A DNA stretch of 64,000 bases from positions 1,836 through 65,835 of the forward strand of contig NJBO01000002.1 in the NCBI GenBank assembly GCA_005223075.1, read 5' to 3'. The position numbers and the translations under genes were made by a program. Each line of letters opens with the position of its first letter. Positions within the stretch are counted from its first letter, which is position 1. Source of the DNA: a candidate division TA06 bacterium B3_TA06. GTDB taxonomy: Bacteria; Hydrothermota; Tepidihabitantia; B3-TA06. Positions 35,356-59,345 of the stretch are shown in pieces. A model generated the notes under the pieces. It was not told where the DNA came from. It was given only the letters and a program-made list of their open reading frames with translations, and searched no databases.

Positions 35356-36260
35356 TGCGCAAACCAGACTGGCTCAGGGTGAAGCTGCCAGGCCATGGCG
35401 AGTACAGGGATGTTGATAAGATATTGAAAGATCTGGACTTACACACCGTTTGCCGCTCGGCGCGCTGCCCCAACATCGCCGACTGCTGGGGGAAAAGAAC
35501 GGTAACGATTATGATCTTAGGGGATGTGTGTACCAGATCCTGCAGGTTCTGCGCGGTAACCCCAGGTAATCCAGGGGGTTATGTAGACGAAACCGAGCCT
35601 GGCCGCGTGGCCGAGGCGGTTAAACGAATGGGATTGCGGTATGTGGTGCTGACCTCGGTTGACCGGGACGATCTTGCCGATGGCGGCACGGAGCATTTTG
35701 CACGCACTATCCAGCTGATCAAGGAGCAGGACCCGAACGTTCTGGTGGAACCCTTGATCCCTGATTTCGGTGTAGGGGCACGGCATGCCGTGCCCTCCCG
35801 TCTCAAAAAGATAATTGACGCGAAACCTGACGTTATCGCCCACAACCTTGAGACAGTGGAGCGGTTGACGCCTCATGTAAGGGATCGCAGGTCAAGTTAC
35901 ACATTATCGTTAGATGTATTGAAAACCTTGAAAGAACTTGAACGTGGTACCATGACCAAATCAGGAATAATGGTAGGATTGGGCGAGACCGACGATGAAG
36001 TCTACCAGGCGCTTCAGGATATGCGGGGAGTAGGGGTAGAGATCGTAACCATCGGCCAGTACCTGCAGCCTACCAAGAGGCATCTGGAGGTTCAAAGATT
36101 CGTCACTCCGGAGCAGTTCGCCGAGTATGAGCGGAGAGCGTTGGAGATGGGCTTTTTATCTGCAGCCTGCGCGCCCCTGGTTCGTTCCTCCTATCATGCT
36201 GCAGAAGCTGCCTCAATCATACGAAATCGCAAGAGGATAAGGGATGAAAAACCTACTTAA
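35352..36260 (+). CDS. lipA: lipoyl synthase (radical SAM)
   Basis: Motifs CPNIADCW and ILGDVCTRSCRFCAV. Confidence 0.92.
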   Translation: MMRKPDWLRVKLPGHGEYRDVDKILKDLDLHTVCRSARCPNIADCWGKRTVTIMILGDVCTRSCRFCAVTPGNPGGYVDETEPGRVAEAVKRMGLRYVVLTSVDRDDLADGGTEHFARTIQLIKEQDPNVLVEPLIPDFGVGARHAVPSRLKKIIDAKPDVIAHNLETVERLTPHVRDRRSSYTLSLDVLKTLKELERGTMTKSGIMVGLGETDDEVYQALQDMRGVGVEIVTIGQYLQPTKRHLEVQRFVTPEQFAEYERRALEMGFLSAACAPLVRSSYHAAEAASIIRNRKRIRDEKPT

Positions 36261-36271
36261 TTATTCTTCTT

Positions 36272-36309
36272 GGGGTCCCCGCGACGGTGCAAAGCAACGG
36301 CGTGGGGTG
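36272..36309 (+). repeat. covarying hairpin repeat, copy A (GGGGTCCCC-stem-AAAG-stem'-GGGGTG)
   Basis: GGGGTCCCCGCGACGGTGCAAAGCAACGGCGTGGGGTG. Same architecture as copies at 40958, 41016 and 44978, with compensatory stem changes. Confidence 0.7.
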
Positions 36310-36410
36310 AATTCATCATATCATGCAGCGGATGTTGCCGTTCTTATAAGGAATCGTAGTTCTCGTAGGGGCCGGTCTTTAGACCGGCCCGGATATGGAG
36401 ATTAATATAG

Positions 36411-36438
36411 CGGGCCGACCTGAAGGTCGGCCCCTACG
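36411..36438. repeat. REP-like palindromic element (CGGGCCGACCTGAAGGTCGGCCCCTACG)
   Basis: Family with copies at 18451, 36729, 41334, 41779, 44796, 52782, 58499 (inverted) and 51281 (diverged). Confidence 0.75.
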
Positions 36439-36728
36439 TTCTCCACTCAGGTAGGTGGGTGATAACCGCATAACCACCACACTCAAGATTATGCCCCATA
36501 TGAGATCGCCCCCCTCCCTTTGGTCGCTTGCACCCCCTTCGGGTGGTCGCGATGACAATTAGGCGGGCTTTCTTTTTCCCCTCCCCCTACCCCCTCCACC
36601 AAGGGAGGGGGATTTTATTCCTCCCCCTTGATGGCGTCAGTGCCCCCGTCGGGTAGGGAGGTGACCTCTGCGAAACAGAGGTCGGAGGAGGTGAATAAAA
36701 TGCGGGCTACTCGCAATGACAAACAAAA

Positions 36729-36758
36729 CGGGCCGACCTTCAGGTCGGCCCCTACGAG
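36729..36758. repeat. REP-like palindromic element (CGGGCCGACCTTCAGGTCGGCCCCTACG)
   Basis: Same family as the copy at 36411. Confidence 0.75.
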
Positions 36759-37036
36759 CTTGTACTCCTAGTCGGATTGACCTTTCCCAGGTGGACACAG
36801 CTCGTTAAATATCCAACCAAGGTCCATTACGTCAAGCTCTCCGCTCAGGTCAAGGTCGGTGCTGTCCAGGGTGCCTCGACATTCGTGGCATTCATAGACG
36901 AGCTTCAGGAACTTGCCCCCCACCAGTCGGGGAACCTCGTTTCGCCTTTCTTTACCATACCAAGTGAATACATCCCGGCCACCTTTAGCACTATTGCACC
37001 TTCGGCAACACAAAACAAGGTTATGTATTTCGTGAG

Positions 37037-38127
37037 TTCAATAATGAAGTGCAACACCTTGGAAAGCGAGAGGGATTTCGTTATTCTGAGGATGTATGCA
37101 CTCAATCTACCGACATCTTGGACTGGAGGAGCGTGAGGTGACAGCGTGCCCCTTGAGCGCTTTATGCGCTCATAGGGTATAGAGAATATGCTTAGAGATG
37201 GGCGATCCATACGCGAGATGGCGCAGGTTTTAGGAAGGAACGCCTCCAGCATCTCGCGGGAGCTACGGCGCAACCGCTCACCAGTCCACGCGAGTTACCT
37301 TGATCATCGCGCCCAGGAGCGTGCGGATAGACGCAGGTCAAACGCAAGCCGCAGGATGCGATTGAAGAGTGATAAGATCAGGGATTACGTGGTGTCCAAG
37401 CTCAACCAAGACTCCTCGCCAGAGCAGATAGCTGGAAGGATCGAGATAGATTGGCCTGGTCTATCTATCAGCCACGAGGCTATCTATCAATACGTCTACC
37501 ATCCTTCCACCCCCAACCGAGGAGAGCTCATCGGTTGTCTGAGGCGTTCTCACAAGAGACGCAAGAGGAAGGGTAGGGCACCAGACAAGCATAGGTCTAA
37601 GATAACGGGTAGGGTGGGCATAGAACAAAGACCATTTGAAGTCGAGACCAGAGCCAGGTTTGGGGACTGGGAGGCAGACACCTTGATCTCACGCCGGAGC
37701 AGGGCGGCTATATTAACCATGGTAGAACGCTCAAGCAGGTTGGTTCAGCTTGAAAAGTTGGATGCTAAGACCTCTACTCTGACATCTCAAGCTATCATCA
37801 GCCGCCTGCTGTGCTTTCCCAGAGACTCCAGGCATACTATCACCTTCGACAATGGCCCGGAGAATGCTGAGCATGAAGGAGTCTCCCAATCCACAGGCAT
37901 AAGCTGCTTCTTCTGCGAACCTTACTCTTCGTGGCAGCGAGGAACCAATGAGCACACCAACGGACTGGTAAGGCAATACTTGCCAAAGAAGACCGACTTC
38001 GCTATAATCAGTAGTGAGGAAATCAAGTTGATAGAGTCAAGGTTAAACAACAGGCCCAGGAAATGCCTGGGCTTTAAAACCCCACTCGAAGTCGCTAACA
38101 TATGTGTTGCACTTCAACGTTGAATGT
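37037..38127 (+). mobile_element. IS30-family insertion sequence (~1.09 kb) with ~22-bp imperfect terminal inverted repeats (GTTCAATAATGAAGTGCAACAC / ATTCAACGTTGAAGTGCAACAC)
   Basis: The terminal inverted repeats flank a single transposase ORF. The element interrupts an HNH endonuclease reading frame. Confidence 0.85.
37188..38123 (+). CDS. IS30-family DDE transposase
   Basis: N-terminal HTH (SIREMAQVLGRNASSISREL). DDE region (GDWEADT...ITFDNGPE...NGLVRQYLPKKTDF) typical of IS30/IS1655-like transposases. Confidence 0.88.
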   Translation: MLRDGRSIREMAQVLGRNASSISRELRRNRSPVHASYLDHRAQERADRRRSNASRRMRLKSDKIRDYVVSKLNQDSSPEQIAGRIEIDWPGLSISHEAIYQYVYHPSTPNRGELIGCLRRSHKRRKRKGRAPDKHRSKITGRVGIEQRPFEVETRARFGDWEADTLISRRSRAAILTMVERSSRLVQLEKLDAKTSTLTSQAIISRLLCFPRDSRHTITFDNGPENAEHEGVSQSTGISCFFCEPYSSWQRGTNEHTNGLVRQYLPKKTDFAIISSEEIKLIESRLNNRPRKCLGFKTPLEVANICVALQR

Positions 38128-38573
38128 AGGTTTCATTAATTTTGCAATCCGGAGGAGCATTAATCTTCTGTGGAATTATATGATCCCAAGTTAAATCCTC
38201 GGTGGCGTCGCAGTAAGAACACCTTTTTTCTTCAAACATCTTCTGATCTTCCCGAACGACATCCGACCACTTCTTCCGCCCCATTTGCAAGTCCTTGAAT
38301 GTTTTCATGATAAACCCGTATTGCCCTTCCATCCCAGCAGATCGAGCGATCAACTTCGCATACTGCCAGAAGATAAGATCCCGGACAGTCTTTACAGCTT
38401 TAGGCGGCATAGATTCCTCCTCGTGACATACCACTATATCCGCAACCGCAAGCTTGTCAACTCTTCTTCTCCCCCCCTCTTCCCTGAAAGGCTTCAAGCA
38501 CCTTGACCAATCCACACAAAGCCCTATAATTCAGAACGTGGGACAAGCTGAATCCCATGTAAGGAGGAGTTAA

Positions 38574-39038
38574 ATGAGTAACACCTTTGGCTCAACCGAT
38601 GAGCTGCTCGATTTTGCGATCGCTAAGGAAGAAGAGGCCAACCAATTCTATACCAACCTGGCGACACGGGTAGAGAAATCCCCCATGCGCGAGGTATTCG
38701 AACGCTTCGCCGCCGAAGAGCTCAAACACAAGGCCAGGCTGGAGGCGATCAAACATGGTAAGCTGCTCTTATCCGCAGAACAAAAGGTTGCCAATCTCAA
38801 GATCGCCGACTATCTTGTGGAGATCAAGCCAGAACCCGACGAAACCCTTGACTATCAGAAAACCCTGATGATCGCGATGCAACGCGAAAAGGCATCATTC
38901 AAACTCTATACCGACCTGGCCGCGATAACCGACAACGCGGAACTGCAGGAGACGCTCTTGGGCCTTGCGCAGGAGGAGGCAAAACATAAGTTGCGCTTTG
39001 AGATCGAATACGACGAGCACATCCTGACCGAGAACTAA
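38574..39038 (+). CDS. ferritin-like / rubrerythrin-family diiron protein (no rubredoxin domain)
   Basis: Paired E..H helices (EEEANQFY...EELKHKARLE ... QREKASFKLY...EEAKHK). Confidence 0.65.
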   Translation: MSNTFGSTDELLDFAIAKEEEANQFYTNLATRVEKSPMREVFERFAAEELKHKARLEAIKHGKLLLSAEQKVANLKIADYLVEIKPEPDETLDYQKTLMIAMQREKASFKLYTDLAAITDNAELQETLLGLAQEEAKHKLRFEIEYDEHILTEN

Positions 39039-39112
39039 CGCTTCAGGTTATCTCTCGTATGTAGGAGACAGGAGGATAGGAGAGGCAAAAAACCTCAAAT
39101 CCAAGGAGGATT

Positions 39113-39295
39113 TTGATGGCAGACAACGAAACGAAGGTAATTGAAGCCTTTAAGAAAGCAGGCGAACCCTTAAAGGCCGGACAGGTGGTAGAGGCCACAG
39201 ACATCGATGCCAAGGAAGTGGGCAAGATCATCAAGAAACTCGCAAAGGAAGGCAAGCTTATCTCCCCGAAGCGCTGTTACTACGGACTCCCCTGA
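39113..39295 (+). CDS. small (60 aa) putative winged-helix DNA-binding protein
   Basis: A ribosome-binding site is present. Helix-turn-helix-like VIEAFKKAGEPLKAGQVVEATDIDAKEVGKIIKKLAKEGKL. It sits between two rubrerythrin-family genes. Confidence 0.45.
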   Translation: MMADNETKVIEAFKKAGEPLKAGQVVEATDIDAKEVGKIIKKLAKEGKLISPKRCYYGLP

Positions 39296-39391
39296 TGCTG
39301 CTTGTAAAATTATCAGGCACGCTGAAGCGCCCTCTTTACCTTTTACTTCCCCAGACCCGCCGTTAAAGGAGTGGAAAGGAAAATAGAGCAA

Positions 39392-39967
39392 ATGGCAAGC
39401 ATAAATGGAACAAAAACCGAACGCAATCTCTTGACCGCGTTTGCCGGCGAGTCGCAGGCCCGCAACCGATACACCTACTTTGCGAGCAAGGCACGCAAGG
39501 AAGGCTATGTTCAGATAGCCGACATCTTTGCCGAAACCGCCAATCAGGAACGCGAACACGCCAAACGTCTCTTCAAGTTCCTCGAGGGCGGCGAGGTGGA
39601 GATAGCCGCAGCATTTCCCGCAGGCGTAATCGGGACGACGCCTGAGAACCTTAAGGCCGCAGCCGCAGGCGAGAACTACGAGTGGACCGAGATGTACCCC
39701 GGTTTCGCCAAGCTGGCCCGCGAGGAAGGCTTTGAGGGGATCGCAGCGGTTTTCGAGGCGATCTCGGTTGCCGAAAAACAGCACGAGAAGCGCTACAATG
39801 ACCTTCTGGCCAACATCGAGGCGGGCAGGGTCTTCAAACGAGATAAACCGGTGATCTGGCGGTGCCGCAACTGCGGCTACCTGCACGAAGGCACCGAAGC
39901 CCCACAAGAATGTCCAGCCTGCGCCCATCCCCAGGCCCACTTCGAGATACTTGGTGAAAACTGGTAA
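39392..39967 (+). CDS. rbr: rubrerythrin (diiron domain plus C-terminal rubredoxin-like C-x2-C...C-x2-C)
   Basis: N-terminal [22 protein letters not shown]-terminal WRCRNCGY...CPACAHP. Confidence 0.9.
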
Positions 39968-40117
39968 CCCGTAACACCGTAACACGCCTCCACTCCCACG
40001 GGGATTTCGCTTCTAACAAAACCATAGTATCAAGGGTGCATTGATGGTGCGCCCTTCCTTTTTGTTACCTTGACAACCCACCACTCTGAGGTTATCCTGA
40101 GCAAACAAGGAGGCAGC

Positions 40118-40795
40118 ATGCGTAAGATAATTATTCTGATCCTTCTAGGAGCGGCTATAGCCGCCGCCGATCCATTCAACACCGTCACCGCCTACACCCT
40201 ACCCCCTCAGATTGGCTACATCGGGCCGAACGTGCCGGTTACGATACCCCTAGAAGAAGGAGGAGACATCTCCATCGCCCCGGTCCTTTGGGCAGGCTAT
40301 GGAATCTTCCCTCGGTTCGATATGACCTTGATGATCCCGGCCAGTATCTACGAGGGCGAGTTCAATCTGGGCGACGCAATGCTTGAGTGGCGTTACGAGC
40401 TGATCTCCTATGAGATGTTAAGCGTCTCGCCGGTGTTCGATGTATTCATACCCATGTATTCCGGTGGTTCGTTGAGCTTTGGCCCAGGGGTGATGGCAAG
40501 CGCTGGGTTTCCCGCCCTGCAGTTACATGCGAATCTCTTCTACACTACTGACTTCAAGGGTTCGGCAGGCGAACTGGCTTTTCTTACTGCTTCTGAATAC
40601 TGGCTATACGAAAGCTTCTCACTCTATACAGAACTTAACCTCTATTACTCGCTGGACGCAAAGGAAGGCACAGTTGAGTTCTGGCCCGGTGTAAGCTGGT
40701 ATCCTACCAACTGGTTGAACATAAATGCCGCCCTTGGTATCCCCACTACCCTGGGCTATCTCTCCCCCGGCCTGGCGGCGTACGTGAGTTTTTAA
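40118..40795 (+). CDS. putative outer-membrane beta-barrel protein
   Basis: AAGGAGG ribosome-binding site. Signal peptide MRKIIILILLGAAIAAA. Alternating amphipathic strands. C-terminal ...AAYVSF. Confidence 0.6.
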   Translation: MRKIIILILLGAAIAAADPFNTVTAYTLPPQIGYIGPNVPVTIPLEEGGDISIAPVLWAGYGIFPRFDMTLMIPASIYEGEFNLGDAMLEWRYELISYEMLSVSPVFDVFIPMYSGGSLSFGPGVMASAGFPALQLHANLFYTTDFKGSAGELAFLTASEYWLYESFSLYTELNLYYSLDAKEGTVEFWPGVSWYPTNWLNINAALGIPTTLGYLSPGLAAYVSF

Positions 40796-40874
40796 GAAAA
40801 ACCTGAGATTAAAAGAGGTTTGTGTTACGAATCTTTGCAGACGTGCCACAAACTCGTCAGAGTTATATCGCACT

Positions 40875-40950
40875 CGTCACAAAAAAGCTGGTCAAAAGCT
40901 GGACAAAAGCTCCCCAAAAGCTGGTCAAAAAGTGGACAAATCAAGGACAA
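40875..40950 (+). repeat. iteron-like array of ~6 degenerate 11-13 bp direct repeats (AAAGCTGGTCAAA / AAGCTGGACAA / AAGTGGACAAA)
   Basis: Direct repeats adjacent to an AT-rich stretch (41090-41140) and the hairpin repeats. Non-coding. Confidence 0.6.
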
Positions 40951-40957
40951 TTTTCCC

Positions 40958-41052
40958 GGGTCCCCATAAAGCTACGAAGTAGATTTACGGGGTAAAAAAA
41001 GCTGGTCAAAACCCCGGGGTCCCCGCAAAAGCGCGAAGCGATTTTGTGGGGT
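40958..41052 (+). repeat. two tandem covarying hairpin repeats (copies D 40958-40993 and C 41016-41052) separated by AAAAAAGCTGGTCAAAA
   Basis: GGGTCCCCATAAAGCTAC-GAAG-TAGATTTACGGGGT and GGGGTCCCCGCAAAAGCGC-GAAG-CGATTTTGTGGGGT. The stems differ in sequence but keep their pairing. Confidence 0.7.
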
Positions 41053-41277
41053 AGAAAAAGGTGGACAGGGACGCGACTGCGTCGCGATTGCAAATATCAA
41101 ATTGCAAAATGCAAATTTTAAAATGATGGTGCGGCTGCGGAGCAGACGTCTGGGGTTAAAAATTCGGGTAATTTCGGGTTGATTTATTATAGGGGAAGCG
41201 GTTTCCCCGCTCCCTTTATCCCCTTATTCATCTCAGCCCGCTTTTTTAATCGGGCCTTTTACCCTCACTCTTCAGAA

Positions 41278-41392
41278 CACCTTGAGGAGATTCGTAGGGG
41301 CGTACCTTTAGGTGCGCCCGCATGATTTAATCGGGCCGACTTGACGCGTAGCGGCGTCTGATCGCCAAAGTCGGCCCCTACGAGCTTACTTA
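41278..41392. repeat. MITE-like element (ACACCTTGAGGAGATTCGTAGGGGCGTACCT..AGGTGCGCCCGCATGATTTAATCGGGCCGAC...GTCGGCCCCTACGAGC)
   Basis: Copies at 41741-41815 and 44702-44835. The last carries a nested insert of a second repeat. Confidence 0.75.
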
Positions 41393-41538
41393 TTCCTTTT
41401 GATCATCTTCTCCGAACGGTTTTCTTTCGGGTTCCGTGAGTATTTATGAACATCATCTCCATTAGGATTAGGTCTTGGAGTTGGCACGGGCTGTTTGTGT
41501 TTTTGAGAACCATTCTCAGATTTTTCTTTTTCTGGCAT
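41386..41538 (-). CDS. small Pro/Lys-rich protein (50 aa), tandem paralog of 41543..41701
   Basis: MPEKEKSENGSQKHKQPVPTPRPNPNGDDVHKY... Its start lies 1 nt after the stop of the upstream small ORF (GGTTAAAATG), which indicates translational coupling. Confidence 0.4.
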   Translation of the reverse strand: MPEKEKSENGSQKHKQPVPTPRPNPNGDDVHKYSRNPKENRSEKMIKRNK

Positions 41539-41542
41539 TTTA

Positions 41543-41701
41543 ACCTTCTTTCGTATGGTTAGGTGTCGAAGAAGAGGATTGCTCAGATGGTGGCTCGGGA
41601 CGTCTCGAAGTAGGATTATCAGCATCCGGATTGGGCTTAGGAGTTGGCAAAGGTTTATCCGGCTTACCTGATGGCTTTTTAGGCCTGTCTTGATCAGGCA
41701 T
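41543..41701 (-). CDS. small Pro/Lys-rich protein (53 aa); missed by the ORF track because it is below the length cutoff
   Basis: AGGAGG ribosome-binding site 6 nt before the ATG. MPDQDRPKKPSGKPDKPLPTPKPNPDADNPTSRRPEPPSEQ... shares M-P-[DE]...(L/V)PTP(K/R)PNP with the downstream ORF. Confidence 0.4.
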
Positions 41702-41740
41702 TAAAACCTCCTACTAAAGAAAATACAATTAATACAAGAT

Positions 41741-41815
41741 TCGTAGGGGCGTACCTTTAGGTGCGCCCGCATGATTTAATCGGGCCGACTTTCAAGTCGG
41801 CCCCTCTCTCCGTGC
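41741..41815. repeat. MITE-like element copy (includes the REP hairpin CGGGCCGACTTTCAAGTCGGCCCC)
   Basis: Near-identical to 41281-41345 and 44765-44830. Confidence 0.75.
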
Positions 41816-43218
41816 CAACGAAAAGCACGGCGGAAACCAAGGTCTTCGGCCTCTTTGATAGTCCATACATATGTCTCTCCTCTTTCCCTCTCAACCTTAG
41901 TCCTGTCGTATTGCTGATCAAAAGGAAGATGATAAATCTTTTCACCCGTCTGACGATTCACATTGCATTTGACTAAGGGATAATCCTCAAGTTTGAAATT
42001 TTCTATGACTTCCACTCCAAGAACCTCGGCAAACCTATGAGCTACAGGCGAAAGTTCGGTGGTTGTCATAAAAACAGACTTCACTTTTAACTTCTTTTGA
42101 AACAGCTCTAAATTCTGGGGACGTTGTTTTCGTTCTTGCTCTACTCTATACATCATGGTAGTCCCATATAGCTGAGCGATGTGCTTTTCATATATTGTTC
42201 GCCATCTAGCCCAACATTTGCATTGAACGATGTGAACCTCTTTGCCTTTCTGGGCAATAACATCCCGACCTAAATCTTCTTCTCTATACAAGACTCCAGA
42301 TGGCAATACCTTATATCCTTTCTCCCAATACCACCATGCCACATATCTCTCGTAATCTCTTCCTATTTGCCACCTACTTTTATGAGGACGCCGACGCCAA
42401 TTATCAAGAGCACGTTGAAGGCGCTCTTGATGGGAAAGTTCTTCCTTAACCGCCTCCCCCTGCCAAAAAACTGCCGGATCAACACCTTCTTCAATCTCCT
42501 CTTCTTCTGGAAGGTTCAAGGTAGTAGCAATCATTTCGTCAATTGTTTCGCCTTCAAAGTCGAAAAGATGCGGAAGGATACTCTGCCAGTAACGAAGTAA
42601 GTATTTAGCCCGACGCCATCTCTTTTCTGCCTCCCGTCGTTTATTTGCAATGTCTCGAATTTCTTCCGCAGCCCTAGGTGCCGGATGCGATTTGTTTTCT
42701 AAATAATCTGCTCTACGTAAATCTTGAAGGTAAAAATAATCTGCGAATACTTCCCCGAGCCAAGGCATCCCTCTTTTGCTTTCTTCAATTATCCTCTGAA
42801 CTTCCTCTTGCTTCCTATTTATCTCTGCTTCCTTTTGTTCTATTGTCACTTTCATCCTAGACCTTCGCTCACTAATCTCCTTTTTCTCTTCCTCCATCAT
42901 CTGTTTAATCTCCTCTTCTCTCTGCTCCATCATTTTTCCCATCCTAAACTTCTCATCGGCTACAAGTCTTTCCCTTTGTTCAATCTCCATCTTTAGCTTC
43001 TCCATATTCGAACGGAGTTCTTTAATCTCTGCCAATTTGCTTACCAGTTGTCTCCTCTGGCGATCTATAGTTGCAGAGAGTTCTCTATTTCGATTTTCCA
43101 AATCAGTAAGTCGCCTTTTTCGTCTTTTAACACTTCGGATTATCGATGATATACCCCATATCAAAAGACCTAAAGCAACTAAAATCAGTAAAACCCAACA
43201 AATTGGTCCCTCAAACAT
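41776..43218 (-). CDS. membrane-anchored coiled-coil protein with C-terminal Mrr-like (PD-(D/E)xK restriction-endonuclease-fold) domain
   Basis: N-terminal transmembrane helix (ICWVLLILVALGLLIWGISSII). An ~130-aa E/K/R-rich coiled coil follows. The Mrr_cat-like core is IGRDYERYVAWWYWEKGYKVLPSG...EEDLGRDVIAQKGKEVHIVQCKCW....HIAQLYG....VFMTTTELSPVAHRFAE. The C-terminal K.YHLP...Y...EAE.LGFR resembles a Cys-less topoisomerase-type zinc-ribbon. Confidence 0.7.
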   Translation of the reverse strand: MFEGPICWVLLILVALGLLIWGISSIIRSVKRRKRRLTDLENRNRELSATIDRQRRQLVSKLAEIKELRSNMEKLKMEIEQRERLVADEKFRMGKMMEQREEEIKQMMEEEKKEISERRSRMKVTIEQKEAEINRKQEEVQRIIEESKRGMPWLGEVFADYFYLQDLRRADYLENKSHPAPRAAEEIRDIANKRREAEKRWRRAKYLLRYWQSILPHLFDFEGETIDEMIATTLNLPEEEEIEEGVDPAVFWQGEAVKEELSHQERLQRALDNWRRRPHKSRWQIGRDYERYVAWWYWEKGYKVLPSGVLYREEDLGRDVIAQKGKEVHIVQCKCWARWRTIYEKHIAQLYGTTMMYRVEQERKQRPQNLELFQKKLKVKSVFMTTTELSPVAHRFAEVLGVEVIENFKLEDYPLVKCNVNRQTGEKIYHLPFDQQYDRTKVERERGETYVWTIKEAEDLGFRRAFRWHGERGRLESRPD

Positions 43219-43276
43219 CTTTCGACTCCTGCTAGAATTCTTCTAGCCCAGAACTCCCACCTGAACATATCAGCCC

Positions 43277-43375
43277 TCTAATCATAAAATTATCTTATAC
43301 TCGGATACATCTTTGTCAAGTGGATTTAAAGCCTCGCTGGCGAACCTTAAGGTTCGCACTACATGGATAGAGAGG
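43277..43375. repeat. ~100-bp repeat carrying a sigma70-like promoter on the minus strand (TTGACA-N16-TAAGAT), a GCGAACC-TTAA-GGTTCGC hairpin and an AGAGAGGGC-CGAA-GCCCTCTCT hairpin; second copy at 44830-44940
   Basis: AATCATAAAATTATCTTATACTCGGATACATCTTTGTCAAGTGGATTTAAAGC...CTCGCTGGCGAACCTTAAGGTTCGCACTACATGG occurs twice, each upstream of one of the two minus-strand genes. Confidence 0.7.
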
Positions 43376-43408
43376 GCCGAAGCCCTCTCTGCTTTTCTTA
43401 AAAGGCTC

Positions 43409-44506
43409 CTACCTTGTCCTTATGTTTCCTGAGTTCCTGTTGTCATGGCGATACTTGGGCCATGACGATGAAGCCAATCCCTTGGATTTGCTGGTAATCG
43501 CGTAGAGATTCTTGTCATCCGCCCCGAAGTAGATCGTTCCGTCGTCAGCGAGCGCGAGTGAAGAATATATCTCTCCGTCGGCTTCATATGTCCACTTAAG
43601 CTTACCTGAGGGATCAAGCGCATAGACGTTGTGATCGGGCGAGCCGAAGTAGATTGTCCCGTCCAAGCCGATTGTCGGGCCGATGTTTACGTCACCCTTT
43701 GTCTCGTATTGCCACTTGACTTCCCCCTCCGGGGTGAGCGCGTAGAGGTTGTTGTCAGCCGACCCGAAGTAGACGGTGCCGTCTTTGGCCACCGCACAGG
43801 AAGACCATATCTCATAGTCGGTCTTGAACTTCCACTTGAGCTCGCCTGAAGGGCTAAGTGCGTAAAGGTAGCCGTCCCTGGACCCGCAGTAGATGGTTCC
43901 GTCCATGCCAATCGCAGGGGAGGCCCGCACCCAGTTCCTGGTCCAGTATCTCCACTTACGCTTGCCGTCCGGGGTAAGGGCATAGATGCAATTGTCCTCC
44001 GAGCTGACGTAAATCGTCCCATCTACACCGATCGCAGGGGTAGTCGCTATGAAATCGCCGGTCCTGTACTTCCACTTGAGTTCGCCTTTGGGGGTAAGCG
44101 CATAAAGGTAACGGTCAAACGAGCCGAAGTAAATCGTCCCGTCTGAACCGAACGCAGGGGTTAACGCCCTTCCCTTGGTCTTGAACTTCCACTTTAGCTC
44201 GCCTTTGGAGGTAAACGCATATAGGTTCTTGTCGTTCGCCGCAACGTAGATCGTCCCCTTGGCATCGATTGCCGGTGCATGCACACCATACTCGATCTTG
44301 TATTTCCATTTGACCTTCCCTGAACGGGAGATGGCGTAAAGGAAGTTGTCTATAGCGGTAACGTAGATCGTCCCGTCTTTACCGATCACCGGGGTTCCTA
44401 CCTCATCACCAAGCTCGCATTGCCACTTGAGCTTGCCCGGTCTCTGACAGGTAAGCAGCCCCAGAGCGAGCGCTGTGCCTAACAGAATAAGCAGTGCTTT
44501 TTTCAT
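43409..44506 (-). CDS. PQQ-repeat (8-bladed beta-propeller) lipoprotein, BamB-like
   Basis: Lipoprotein signal MKKALLILLGTALALGLLTC. Eight repeats of DGTIY.(G/S)..D..LYA......KWK. Confidence 0.8.
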   Translation of the reverse strand: MKKALLILLGTALALGLLTCQRPGKLKWQCELGDEVGTPVIGKDGTIYVTAIDNFLYAISRSGKVKWKYKIEYGVHAPAIDAKGTIYVAANDKNLYAFTSKGELKWKFKTKGRALTPAFGSDGTIYFGSFDRYLYALTPKGELKWKYRTGDFIATTPAIGVDGTIYVSSEDNCIYALTPDGKRKWRYWTRNWVRASPAIGMDGTIYCGSRDGYLYALSPSGELKWKFKTDYEIWSSCAVAKDGTVYFGSADNNLYALTPEGEVKWQYETKGDVNIGPTIGLDGTIYFGSPDHNVYALDPSGKLKWTYEADGEIYSSLALADDGTIYFGADDKNLYAITSKSKGLASSSWPKYRHDNRNSGNIRTR

Positions 44507-44701
44507 CTTTCCTCCTCATTGTGTTGGTGTTGAAGGATTTTTATCAAAGCCCTGGCAGGGCGGACTGCTAACGCAACCATCAAGTTTCCTCCTTGATACT
44601 GTCTTATGTTGAGTGTAATCGGAAACACGGACGTTGTCAAGTAAAAGGAAACAAATAGACTCTTATGAGAGAAAGCCCCAGCCGCGTATGTGAACTTCTC
44701 T

Positions 44702-44940
44702 TAAGAACACCTTGAGGAGATTCGTAGGGGCGTACCTCAGCGTGCCCCTTGGGATACCGTGTATCCCATAGGGTATTAGGTCCGCCCGCATGATTTAATC
44801 GGGCCGACTTTCAAGTCGGCCCCTACGAGCTTTAATCATAAAATTATCTTATACTCGGATACATCTTTGTCAAGTGGATTTAAAGCGTGTAGCGCGAGGC
44901 TTCAGCCTCGCTGGCGAACCTTAAGGTTCGCACTACATGA
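44702..44940. repeat. MITE-like element (with nested insert) followed by the second copy of the promoter-bearing repeat
   Basis: See 41278 and 43277. Confidence 0.7.
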
Positions 44941-44977
44941 ATAGCCCGTAACACAAGGCGCGCCCTTAATCTCTTCC

Positions 44978-45015
44978 GGGGTCCCCGCGACGTTGCAAGG
45001 CAACGGCGTGGGGTG
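44978..45015 (+). repeat. covarying hairpin repeat, copy B
   Basis: GGGGTCCCCGCGACGTTGCAAGGCAACGGCGTGGGGTG. Confidence 0.7.
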
Positions 45016-45017
45016 CA

Positions 45018-45632
45018 TCAGTGGGTGATGGTGATGCGGCGGATGGTGTCCGGAGGAATACCCTCGTCTTCATTACCGTTGCGCAACTGCATCACCACGT
45101 CCATGCCTTCGATCACTCGACCGAATACGCAGTAGTTGCCGTCAAGGTCAAGCGCCGGCTCAAGGCAGATGTAGAACTGACAAGACGCGGAGTTCCGGGC
45201 AGCGCCGCGTGCCATGCCAACCGCACCCTTAATATGCGATCGGCCGCTTTCCTCGTAGTCTATGGTGTAACCTGCGCTGCCCTGACCGGTGCCCAGAGGG
45301 TCGCCGCCCTGAATCACAAAGCCGCCGACGTAGCGATGCCAGATAAGGCCGTCGTAGAAGCCCGCATCTGCAAGCCTGATGAAGTTGCGCACAGTGTTCG
45401 GCGCCTCCATTGAATAGAGCTTGAACGTAAAGCTTCCCTTGTTGGTCTCAACCACAGCGCACTCGTTCCCGGTGAGCTTGACCGGATTGCTTTTCACGCG
45501 AAGCGCAAGCCCCACCCTCTCCTTGGCAGAAAGGTTGTAGGTATCGGGTATCGAAGGCTGAACCGCCTTAACACACGCAAGTCCTGCAAGCAGAACCAGG
45601 GACGTGAATCCGGCGAGGCGAACAAGCTTCAT
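45018..45632 (-). CDS. cyclophilin-type peptidyl-prolyl cis-trans isomerase, secreted/lipoprotein
   Basis: FYDGLIWHRYVGGFVIQGGDP...GAVGMARG...CQFYICL..LDGNYCVFG.VIEGMDVV. Signal peptide ending LACVKA. Confidence 0.88.
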   Translation of the reverse strand: MKLVRLAGFTSLVLLAGLACVKAVQPSIPDTYNLSAKERVGLALRVKSNPVKLTGNECAVVETNKGSFTFKLYSMEAPNTVRNFIRLADAGFYDGLIWHRYVGGFVIQGGDPLGTGQGSAGYTIDYEESGRSHIKGAVGMARGAARNSASCQFYICLEPALDLDGNYCVFGRVIEGMDVVMQLRNGNEDEGIPPDTIRRITITH

Positions 45633-58696: not shown

Positions 58697-58724
58697 TTGA
58701 CAAGTTACAGAAATCGGATAAACT
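58697..58724 (+). promoter_or_regulatory. sigma70-like promoter TTGACA-N16-TAAACT for the lipoprotein gene
   Basis: Consensus -35, ~20 nt upstream of the ribosome-binding site. Confidence 0.4.
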
Positions 58725-58744
58725 TCTCCATCAAAGGAGGATGC

Positions 58745-59131
58745 ATGAAAAAGTTGCTCTTGCTTATCCCTCTCGTTGCAATGATTGCGCTCAGCGGATG
58801 CGCGTGGCAAGCCGTTTCTAAGGTCCCCCCACCGAAAGACGTATTCATGACAACCGGCGACATGAAGGACGGCGACTACGAACCAGTAGGAATGGTTAGT
58901 GCGATGCGCATCGAACTGGCATTCAGCTGTCTCGGTATCCTGCCCCCTCTCTATCCCATGATAGGGCCACAGGCACAAGACTTGCTTTTTGAGCAGCTGG
59001 CCAAGGAAGCCAAGAGGATGGGTGCCAACGCCGTAATCAATATAAGAACCTCTGTCATACCTGCCCCGATCATCCCAGGGCTTATCTGGATACCTGTGGT
59101 TAACATGAGCGGCATGGCGATCAAGATGTAG
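58745..59131 (+). CDS. small lipoprotein with YbjQ/DUF74-like (heavy-metal-binding-like) domain
   Basis: AAGGAGG ribosome-binding site. Lipobox LSGC. C-terminal GANAVINIRT...MSGMAIKM resembles the YbjQ family. Confidence 0.55.
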   Translation: MKKLLLLIPLVAMIALSGCAWQAVSKVPPPKDVFMTTGDMKDGDYEPVGMVSAMRIELAFSCLGILPPLYPMIGPQAQDLLFEQLAKEAKRMGANAVINIRTSVIPAPIIPGLIWIPVVNMSGMAIKM

Positions 59132-59146
59132 GCTTTCAAAGATTCA

Positions 59147-59178
59147 AAGAGGGTGCCCAGGCACCCTCTTTTTTCTTA
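59147..59178 (+). terminator. rho-independent terminator (AGAGGGTGCC-CAG-GCACCCTCT plus TTTTTTCTT)
   Basis: Textbook stem-loop plus a U-run right after the lipoprotein gene stop. Confidence 0.8.
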
Positions 59179-59345
59179 CCCCACTCGGTCGCTTCACGAC
59201 CGAGCGGGGACCCCTGAACTATTTAGACCTGGCAATCCGAAGATATAACCTTGCGAAATACAAGTTATGCATTATCAGGTCTTACAAGGATCAACATAAC
59301 CTCCAGACCCGTTGACAATCCGCACTTTCTGATTAATATCAACGA

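Follow-up and report, generated by a model that had tools for sequence, protein, structure and literature searches.

Background

Repetitive extragenic palindromic (REP) sequences are imperfect palindromes of 20 to 40 bp that carry a GTAG or CGTC tag and typically occur as inverted pairs (Di Nocera 2013, PMC3733652). The substrates of the RAYT transposases are bound on one strand, and combine an unpaired tetranucleotide on the 5' side with critical positions in the loop (PMC3733652, PMC8266576); swapping the stem has only a moderate effect on cleavage (PMC8266576). Elements of the REP type are best described in Proteobacteria, with fewer cases elsewhere. Another mobile mini-palindrome, the M-class G+C cluster ACTCCTTCGGGGTCCCCGCCGGGGCGGGGACT, resides in the A/T-rich DNA of yeast mitochondria, and the mechanism of its mobilization is described as unresolved (PMC4478555). 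In this report, we examine short hairpins tagged with GGGGT that recur in a stretch of 64,000 nucleotides, hereafter the window, from the candidate division TA06 bacterium B3_TA06 (GenBank assembly GCA_005223075.1, contig NJBO01000002.1).

These hairpins probably form a REP-like family of very small, non-autonomous mobile elements that act as single-stranded DNA (ssDNA) hairpins and bear a new tag, which is analogous to, but not one of, the two described REP tags. No paper describing the GGGGT hairpin family was found, and motif searches returned only the article on yeast GC clusters as relevant. The family is large and structurally constrained, resides mainly in the uncultured WOR-3/Stahlbacteria, and its approximately 245 distinct variants map what a hairpin-recognizing protein would need (the tag, the foot, one wobble pair and the triloop) and what it would ignore (eight stem pairs).

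Five hairpins of one family in the window

The consensus of the family reads (T)TCG-GGGT-CCCC-[10 nt]-GAA-[10 nt]-GGGG-T. It folds into a 14-bp stem that has a CCCC/GGGG foot and, at pair 5, a conserved G.T wobble. A C-G pair closes the GAA triloop, and the 5' motif (C)GGGGT, of which the GGGT part is invariant, is unpaired. When a covariance model was scored at every position of the window, exactly five hairpins emerged, with 50-63 bits, while the next-best score was 17 bits and came from the reverse strands of the same five sites. An ungapped hairpin pattern had 5 exact matches in the window, against an average of 2.5 in shuffled sequences with 2 mismatches allowed.

Copy 1 (36272-36308, plus strand, GGGGTCCCC-GCGACGGTGC-AAA-GCAACGGCGT-GGGGT, 56.3 bits) begins 12 nt past the lipA stop codon, in sense orientation. 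Downstream of the gene at 40070-40795, and also in sense orientation, stand copy 2 (40958-40993, plus strand, GGGTCCCC-ATAAAGCTAC-GAA-GTAGATTTAC-GGGGT, 50.3 bits), which has just GGG ahead of the T, and copy 3 (41016-41052, plus strand, GGGGTCCCC-GCAAAAGCGC-GAA-GCGATTTTGT-GGGGT, 63.1 bits). Copy 4 (44978-45014, plus strand, GGGGTCCCC-GCGACGTTGC-AAG-GCAACGGCGT-GGGGT, 52.4 bits) lies 3 nt from the stop of a minus-strand cyclophilin gene (45018-45632) and is hence antisense to its transcript; copies 1 and 4 make up one stem subfamily, with 2 differences between them and unrelated flanks. Copy 5 (59178-59214, minus strand, GGGGTCCCC-GCTCGGTCGT-GAA-GCGACCGAGT-GGGGT, 54.0 bits) is antisense to both flanking genes. 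It abuts the canonical intrinsic terminator of the gene at 58697-59131, read directly from the sequence (59148-59177, plus strand, AGAGGGTGCC-CA-GGCACCCTCT followed by TTTTTCTT), and the T-run of this terminator is the A-tract beside the insertion.

As DNA, the tagged strands of copies 1 to 5 fold with -13.3, -7.5, -13.1, -15.3 and -16.3 kcal/mol, respectively. Four of the five lie 3.6-6.0 standard deviations below shuffled sequences (z = -3.6 to -6.0, with -3.7 for copy 1 and -6.0 for copy 5), and for four of the copies folding of the complementary strand is less favorable (-6.7 for the bottom strand of copy 1).

A sequence-only reading of this DNA had placed four intergenic copies on the plus strand, at 36272, 40958, 41016 and 44978, and all four are located there. 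Its placement of these four on that strand is correct; the fifth full copy, which it missed, is on the minus strand. The loop of four nucleotides that it described (G/AAAG) is in fact a triloop, GAA, AAA or AAG, since 'GAAG' counts the G of the closing C-G pair. Its stems of 13-14 bp come to 14 bp with the foot included, and contain 0-2 internal mismatches, mainly purine-purine.

Distribution of the family

Genomes, one per species, were scanned with an exact pattern and metagenomes with a pattern scan, and each scan matched at least 120 loci (designated below by L numbers). A looser rescan of the 120 listed genome loci counted at least 197 copies, and 113 of the 120 listed metagenome loci contained at least 170, of which 137 were distinct; in all, the two scans added at least about 370 copies to those of the window, of which about 245 are distinct. 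A lack of copies elsewhere, which would have spoken against the sequence-only reading, is thus decisively contradicted. Among the genome matches listed, most belong to metagenome-assembled genomes (MAGs) of WOR-3/Stahlbacteria (JAGMDF, JAYELY, DAOVCF, SOJW, JAFGSK, JALSNX, WJJO and CBFGKC), and partial samples of four related MAGs contain 23-35 copies each. A second group comes from uncultured Clostridia MAGs of the rabbit gut, and isolated, clearly hairpin-forming copies were found in Actinomycetota, Streptosporangiaceae, Nocardioides, Roseomonas, Saccharimonadales and Cloacimonadota. About 5 matches, mainly actinomycete (Streptomyces, Actinomycetota), do not fold and are due to chance.

The tag, foot and loop are invariant across phyla. 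Most stem positions keep their purine or pyrimidine identity, copies differing by transitions along the series A-T, G.T and G-C, which identifies all copies, those of other phyla included, as homologous descendants of one sequence. The same family in at least five phyla, some unrelated, implies horizontal spread of the element or of the enzyme that recognizes it. A plasmid or phage origin of the hairpin region was rejected, as megablast of 36000-45200 against plasmid and phage collections gave no match, and the pattern scan of viral contigs gave 0 hairpins. Over the whole window, no Rfam family matched at the gathering threshold, and around the tandem copies there were only chance-level matches, with E above 1.

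Another hairpin repeat packs the intergenic regions of the rabbit-gut Clostridia MAGs (L031, L039, L040, L064, L071, L077, L103, L116 and L120) and of L220 (4700-5900). It reads GGGGATxCTTCGAC..GCTCxGxATGACA-loop-TGTCATTCCGAGCG..GTCGAGGAATCCCC, and GTCATTGCGAGC...GCAATC in WOR-3-like contigs; a GGGGTCCCC hairpin is often nested in its right arm. No paper containing the sequence of this repeat was found.

Stem covariation and its strand asymmetry

In an alignment of 107 distinct copies (A1), the four foot pairs are invariant, pair 5 is mostly G.T (81 copies), otherwise A-T or G-C, or an A.C mismatch (4 copies), and eight stem pairs show changes on both sides. Paired cells amount to 92.6%, against 40-53% in controls with partners slid by 1-3 columns, and the observed covariation score was reached by none of 500 shuffles. 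Because the search pattern fixed just the foot, the purine-pyrimidine identity of pairs 5 and 6 and the loop, the eight variable pairs are not biased by the way in which copies were collected. Diversity is such that the 129 WOR-3 copies comprise 108 distinct inner sequences, and orthologs reveal compensation directly: copy 3 of the window has A-T where its ortholog in L059 has G-C, and L017 differs from L049 by two double changes. Conserved flanks and loop together with variable, complementary stems indicate a constraint on structure, and the stem sequence is free provided that it pairs. The earlier proposal that covariation reflects selection on structure and not on sequence, made from the window copies, was replicated in two independent samples.

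Mismatches are distributed unequally on the tagged strand. The genome set contains 52 G.T/T.G against 10 A.C/C.A, and 89 purine-purine against 5 pyrimidine-pyrimidine mismatches; the independent metagenome set gives 59 against 11 and 108 against 5. Overall, G.T exceeds A.C about 5:1 and purine-purine exceeds pyrimidine-pyrimidine about 20:1. A palindrome constrained as a duplex cannot produce such a one-strand bias, so that only the GGGGT-tagged strand is constrained to fold; indirectly, the bias also supports the idea that a transposase would bind and cleave the folded hairpin as a single strand. The loop G-C-GAA-G-C matches the exceptionally stable DNA mini-hairpin d(GCGAAGC), and the GAA triloop is a stable loop of DNA type, not typical of RNA.

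A few copies depart from the consensus. The inner stem-loop is seemingly flipped in L013 (4671-4708), L033 (936-971) and L085 (4545-4583), where the loop is TTC or CTTCA instead of GAA and the outer GGGTCCCC...GGGGT frame is kept, and a copy near position 884 of L036 has about 22 extra nt inside its loop.

Hairpin content at orthologous sites

After the gene at 40070-40795, four related genomes differ in hairpin content alone. JAGMDF (L086) has 0 hairpins, JAYELY (L059) and the metagenome contig L200 have 1, orthologous to copy 3, and the window has 2, copy 2 being absent from the three others. Copy 1 is missing at the orthologous site of JAGMDF and present in the metagenome relative L175; copy 4 has an ortholog in JAGMDF, and copy 5 one in Candidatus Stahlbacteria SOJW (L034), 2 substitutions apart. 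Comparison of an empty site in L065 with the filled site in L089 delimits an insert of about 45 nt, made up of a leader, the hairpin and 1-2 nt. One orthologous array, with flanks 90-96% identical, has turned over: JAYELY carries [A][B], SOJW [C][A] and DAOVCF [C][D]. Near-identical stems also occur at sites with unrelated flanks, copies 1 and 4 of the window among them. The stems of L017, L049 and L053, at orthologous or paralogous sites, diverge much faster than the adjacent flanks, yet stay paired. The possibility that stems are copied from local flanks was rejected, as a 7-mer common to hairpin and flank occurs for 42 of 129 hairpins, against 44.9 +/- 5.4 in controls. The A-runs beside hairpins are already present at the empty sites of L086 and L065, and therefore are target sequence, not tails.

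Several hairpins stand beside partial duplications. The lipA gene ends with SSYHAAEAASIIRNRKRIRDEKPT and its stop codon, followed by 11 nt, copy 1 and a remnant of a lipA C-terminal coding end (36313-36359, plus strand, SSYHAADVAVLIRNR and a stop), which is a diverged duplicate of the lipA 3' end. This remnant matches the true C-terminus of lipA in JAGMDF (L086), where the hairpin is lacking, at 94% identity; in L175, the closer relative, part of it is deleted. Hairpins flanked in this way by a gene's 3' end and its diverged duplicate (35-90 nt) recur at several loci, including a CHAT-like gene (L083, 5300-5680, with a 78-nt repeat) and T9SS-CTD genes (L017, 2200-2500; L049; L053); in L030 (1150-1900), the 3' half of a tRNA-Met is repeated beside a hairpin. 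Such duplicates possibly arose by long target duplication on insertion, by Campbell-type reintegration of excised circles, or by hairpin-induced replication slippage.

Placement relative to genes and A-tracts

Over genome and metagenome loci, 54 intergenic copies lie between convergent genes (27+27), 102 between tandem genes and 19 between divergent genes (10+9). Within tandem contexts, 56 copies are in sense (21+35) and 46 in antisense (23+23) orientation. Matches 'inside' open reading frames (ORFs) of the genome loci fall in short spurious ORFs or ORF ends, and the metagenome set has 42 more 'inside' matches. In such MAGs, the hairpins give rise to spurious short ORFs and interrupt assemblies; they should be masked when genes are annotated.

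Copies favor the 3' ends of genes, of terminators or of tRNAs, and A-tracts, among which are terminator T-runs entered in antisense; terminators abut hairpins in L014 and L046 as they do at copy 5. On the 5' side, copies are flanked by TTCG and on the 3' side by A-rich sequence (A in 56-62% of copies at +3 to +5), and no terminator-type U-tract or T-run is correctly placed on either strand. Among pairs of hairpins in WOR-3 loci, 26 run head to tail, 6 head to head and 3 tail to tail; spacers of 8-10 nt separate 15 of the 26, which results in a 45-nt period.

The tandem copies 2 and 3 stand, as had been noticed earlier, beside an 'iteron-like' array, which is real: five 11-nt units AAAAGNTGGNC with phased A-tracts at 40883-40937 (plus strand). 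The array is part of an intergenic module (40846-41162 in the window) composed of AACTCGTCAG-N8-GCACTCGTCAC, 3-6 tandem 11-nt units AAAAGNTGGNC and then GGACAGGGACGCGACTGCGTCGCGATTGCAAATATCAAATTGCAAAATGCAAA. This module has 20 instances in WOR-3/Stahlbacteria loci (L002, L003, L016, L022, L033, L036, L043, L045, L055, L059, L065, L086, L089, L096, L109, L113 and L118), where hairpins always follow an AAAA run, and it is a hot spot, that is, a preferred hairpin site. An interpretation of the 11-mers as iterons of a replication origin was rejected, as the module is multi-copy and intergenic and has no replication genes nearby. The simplest account of the association is that hairpins prefer A-tracts as insertion sites, and no replication origin need be assumed.

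The ends of tRNA or tmRNA genes were seen 4-7 nt from hairpins in L010 (3008-3165), L032 (4781-4939), L042 (262-848) and L102 (2347-2460). The L010 hairpin has a tRNA-Arg on one side and a truncated tRNA fragment on the other; a tyrosine recombinase gene is about 750 nt off.

Searches for a mobilizing enzyme

In the genome loci, tblastn with RAYT/TnpA queries gave only noise, and Pfam revealed no HUH transposase beside hairpins; an apparent transposase match in L017 was rejected, as it is AddAB. Where inverted hairpins bracket an ORF, its product has no Pfam domain or is a TPR protein, and no autonomous, full-length element with hairpin halves as termini was seen in the sampled loci. Only ABC ATPases, short-chain dehydrogenases and tyrosine recombinases recur near hairpins across phyla. 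In L010, L030 and L102, genes of the last class are no more than 1 kb away from hairpins, beside tRNA genes and partial tRNA repeats; their number (6 in 855 kb) is no convincing excess over background, and 3 of the 6 are XerC/D-like housekeeping types. No reverse transcriptase was noticed near hairpins, and no search was aimed at one.

Two Y1_Tnp genes of the RAYT type lie in hairpin-bearing metagenome loci (L200, 3458-3922, encoding 154 aa; L220, 5207-5530), within about 1.6 Mb of hairpin-bearing fragments. Both are directly flanked by GTAG REPs (GTAGGGGC...GCCCCTAC), which indicates that these organisms possess a classical REP/RAYT system of which the GGGGT hairpins are not the visible cargo; a dedicated enzyme may be encoded outside these fragments.

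The GTAG family that flanks these genes is abundant in the window too, as a second repeat family of tagged, REP/REPIN-like inverted doublets (ATTCGTAGGGGC...GCCCCTACGAG; 13 matches, against 3.5 expected). They lie at 36363-36385, 36430-36439 (minus strand), 36748-36757 (minus strand), 41292-41383, 41741-41800, 44722-44828 and 12361 (minus strand). The segment at 41288-41381 is 100% identical to positions 3319-3412 of L086 in JAGMDF, whose neighboring genes are only about 83% identical.

A probable mobile single-stranded DNA hairpin and its alternatives

The explanation that we regard as probable is that of a REP-like, non-autonomous mobile element. Its unit is about 45 nt long, with an A/T-rich TTC leader, the unpaired GGGGT tag, and the 14-bp hairpin with its invariant CCCC/GGGG foot and GAA triloop. 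By analogy with RAYT/TnpA(REP) and IS200/IS605, a trans-acting protein would recognize the tagged strand as a folded ssDNA hairpin and copy or move this unit to A-rich sites. What it reads in sequence would be the tag, the foot and the loop, while the stem would serve only as a spacer. Compensatory changes would accumulate in stems since a copy that no longer folds could not be propagated, template switches from one arm of the palindrome to the other may add to this compensation, and any effects on mRNA 3' ends would be side effects.

A number of observations weigh against this explanation. No mobilizing enzyme could be linked to the hairpins, the window having no Y1/HUH gene and, apart from the IS30-type gene, no integrase, and both RAYT genes stand next to GTAG REPs instead of GGGGT hairpins, in contrast to a REPtron. 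Neither a target-site duplication nor exact termini are definable, and the differences in presence and absence could partly be deletions. The two substitutions that separate the window from its close ortholog L034 are disruptive, not compensatory. Unlike REPs, the hairpins have a GGGT/GGGGT tag that is neither GTAG nor CGTC, and their dimers are head to tail (26 against 9 inverted), with 9-nt spacers, and not inverted pairs. It is also unusual for REPs that a single homologous family of 36 nt should occur across several phyla. Finally, as to a replication-strand bias, orientation shows no relation to local GC skew or coding-strand bias; sites in one locus share orientation in 17 cases against 6, which is suggestive only.

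The alternative that survives best, although we consider it unlikely, is that the hairpins are RNA elements (3'-end stabilizers, processing signals, terminators, or a small structured RNA or protein-binding RNA motif) under selection for an RNA fold. Most copies do lie just downstream of genes, convergent and tandem contexts far outnumber divergent ones, several copies neighbor tRNA or tmRNA genes at 4-7 nt, G.U wobbles are tolerated, including the conserved one at pair 5, and REPs are known to affect mRNA stability (PMC3733652). However, the strand asymmetry is defined by the tag, while about half of the copies are antisense, and their transcripts would carry A.C and pyrimidine-pyrimidine mismatches; an orientation independent of flanking transcription thus disfavors a constraint on RNA folding. 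Moreover, no U-tract follows the hairpin, the loop is of DNA type, copy 5 is antisense behind a real terminator, there is no Rfam family, and copy number varies at orthologous sites. The sequence-only reading had left the choice between a small RNA or RNA motif and a protein-recognized DNA hairpin; the latter fits better, and the RNA option is disfavored by random orientation, copy 5, Rfam and site turnover. Orientation, flanks and loop together favor an ssDNA form, with incidental effects on transcripts possible.

Next comes the rather doubtful idea that the GGGGT hairpin is a distinct, cross-phylum class of self-propagating ssDNA hairpin, moved by something other than a flanking RAYT and evolutionarily related to, or recognized like, the yeast M-class clusters. 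The mover might then be an unrecognized nuclease acting in trans, or a replication- or retro-based copying that would leave long duplications of gene 3' ends. If this were true, bacteria would offer a tractable system in which to learn how mini-palindromes move, which has been asked of mitochondrial GC clusters since the 1980s.

It is improbable that the hairpins are double-stranded or cruciform binding sites of a nucleoid protein, a topoisomerase or a tyrosine recombinase, with CGGGG-T-CCCCG as the site and spread by recombination instead of transposition. The 5' part of most copies is indeed a perfect palindrome of 11 bp, CGGGGTCCCCG, hairpins lie in phased A-tract (bent) DNA, and tyrosine recombinases occur within 1 kb of them in three loci. 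In E. coli, REPs bind gyrase, and also IHF (PMC3479197). A duplex site cannot explain the one-strand bias in either class of mismatch, the recombinases are not clearly above background and none is in the window, and arrays with 9-nt spacers and without cassettes are unlike att/attC arrays. As to the recombination site suggested earlier, the hairpins are not one of the integron or att kind: there is no integrase nearby and no cassettes, and copies stand head to tail 9 nt apart.

Still less credible is the view that covariation is a mutational by-product, in which template switching in imperfect palindromes copies a mutation from one arm to the other and the hairpins have no recognition function today. 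Quasi-palindrome template-switch mutagenesis is reportedly well documented in bacteria, it would account for stems that diverge much faster than their flanks and still pair (L017, L049 and L053), and hairpins are often found beside local duplications. It leaves unexplained the invariance of tag, foot and loop across phyla, the one-strand mismatch bias, the same stem at unrelated sites and the gain of whole 45-nt units, so that template switching can only be a contributing mechanism at most.

Retro-mobilization, in which an oligo-adenylated, hairpin-ended RNA is reverse-transcribed into A/T-rich targets with long target duplications of variable length, is highly improbable: the A-rich 3' flank, the gene 3'-end duplicates of 35-90 nt (lipA, the CHAT-like and T9SS-CTD genes, tRNA-Met) and the RNA route proposed for yeast mitochondrial GC clusters (PMC4478555) are in its favor, but A-runs pre-exist at empty sites, an orientation that is random with respect to genes speaks against an origin in read-through transcripts, and no reverse transcriptase was noticed near hairpins, although no search was aimed at one.

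Gene context of the window

The window is a segment of a bacterial chromosome with a G+C content of 51.7%. Its genes include lipB/lipA, an IS30-like transposase, rubrerythrins, an Mrr-like nuclease, a BamB-like propeller, cyclophilins and V-type ATPase subunits. There is no tRNA and no Y1/HUH transposase in the window, and the sole integrase-type gene is that of the IS30 type. The window is 96% identical across 4.5 kb to SOJW01000044 (Candidatus Stahlbacteria E44_bin36, locus L034), an identity that places it with the WOR-3/Stahlbacteria MAGs, and its genes are 81-84% identical to those of two 'candidate division WOR-3' MAGs (JAGMDF, L086; JAYELY, L059).

Two segments of the window are missing from the orthologous regions of JAGMDF. 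One, of about 2.1 kb (36360-38494), bears the IS30-like transposase gene (HTH_38 + rve, 37188-38123), and its absence from JAGMDF indicates a recent insertion. The other comprises the genes of the Mrr-like restriction nuclease (41776-43218) and of the BamB-like propeller (43409-44506), which lie between direct copies of a GTAG-REP doublet (41381-44776); as they are missing in the orthologous interval (L086, 3412-4571), this is a small variable island bounded by repeats.

Comparison with known systems

Like a rho-independent terminator, the element is a hairpin with a G+C foot just downstream of genes, but it has no correctly placed T-run on either strand, half of its copies are antisense, and copy 5 follows a real terminator. 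A classification as miniature inverted-repeat transposable elements was rejected, as there is no flanking short direct repeat and, in the sampled loci, no element with split hairpin arms as termini.

With the yeast M-class cluster, the hairpins share an identical 14-nt 5' end, TTCGGGGTCCCCGC, followed by a complementary G(C/T)GGGG foot (PMC4478555, Table 1), as well as insertion in A/T-rich spacers, single or tandem elements, and rapid turnover and shuffling. They differ in being bacterial, not organellar; the yeast inner stem is much shorter and all G+C, and the AG or ACT direct repeats of the yeast clusters are not seen around hairpins. The resemblance is a lead from a motif text search and may be coincidence or convergence.

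The resemblance to attC sites lies in conserved ends, a variable self-complementary center, a folded single strand, tolerance of unpaired bases and same-strand arrays. The hairpins are shorter (36 nt, against 57-141 nt), lack the R''/R' core (RYYYAAC...GTTRRRY), intI and cassettes, and include scattered copies in both orientations. An integron was thus rejected, for lack of intI, core sites and cassettes and because tandem units stand 9 nt apart with no ORFs between them; the GGGGT family works like attC in its structure-specificity, without the hallmarks of integrons.

Like the ends of IS200/IS605 elements and of their hairpin-based miniature derivatives, the hairpins are subterminal and imperfect and would be read on one strand, with a conserved short motif 5' of the foot; they also have no discernible target-site duplication and insert beside a preferred short sequence. 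Unlike those elements, they present a single hairpin and not distinct left and right ends, their target looks like an A-tract and not a specific 4-5-mer, and no full-length element or TnpA with hairpin ends was found in the sampled loci.

The closest likeness is to REPs. Both are imperfect palindromes, here of 36 nt with a 14-bp stem, a 3-nt loop and an unpaired motif at one end, and both are intergenic, high in copy number and placed mainly after unidirectional or convergent genes. Both are clustered, with several stem subfamilies per genome, and carry their recognition features on one strand, with conserved loop positions (PMC3733652, PMC8266576). GTAG REPs and RAYT genes coexist with the hairpins in the same genomes. 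Unlike in REPs, stem diversity is far higher, nearly every copy being distinct, and one homologous family spans at least five phyla. The head-to-tail arrays, the absence of flanking RAYTs and the recurrent duplicates of gene 3' ends hint at a mobilization route unlike that of the REP/RAYT model.

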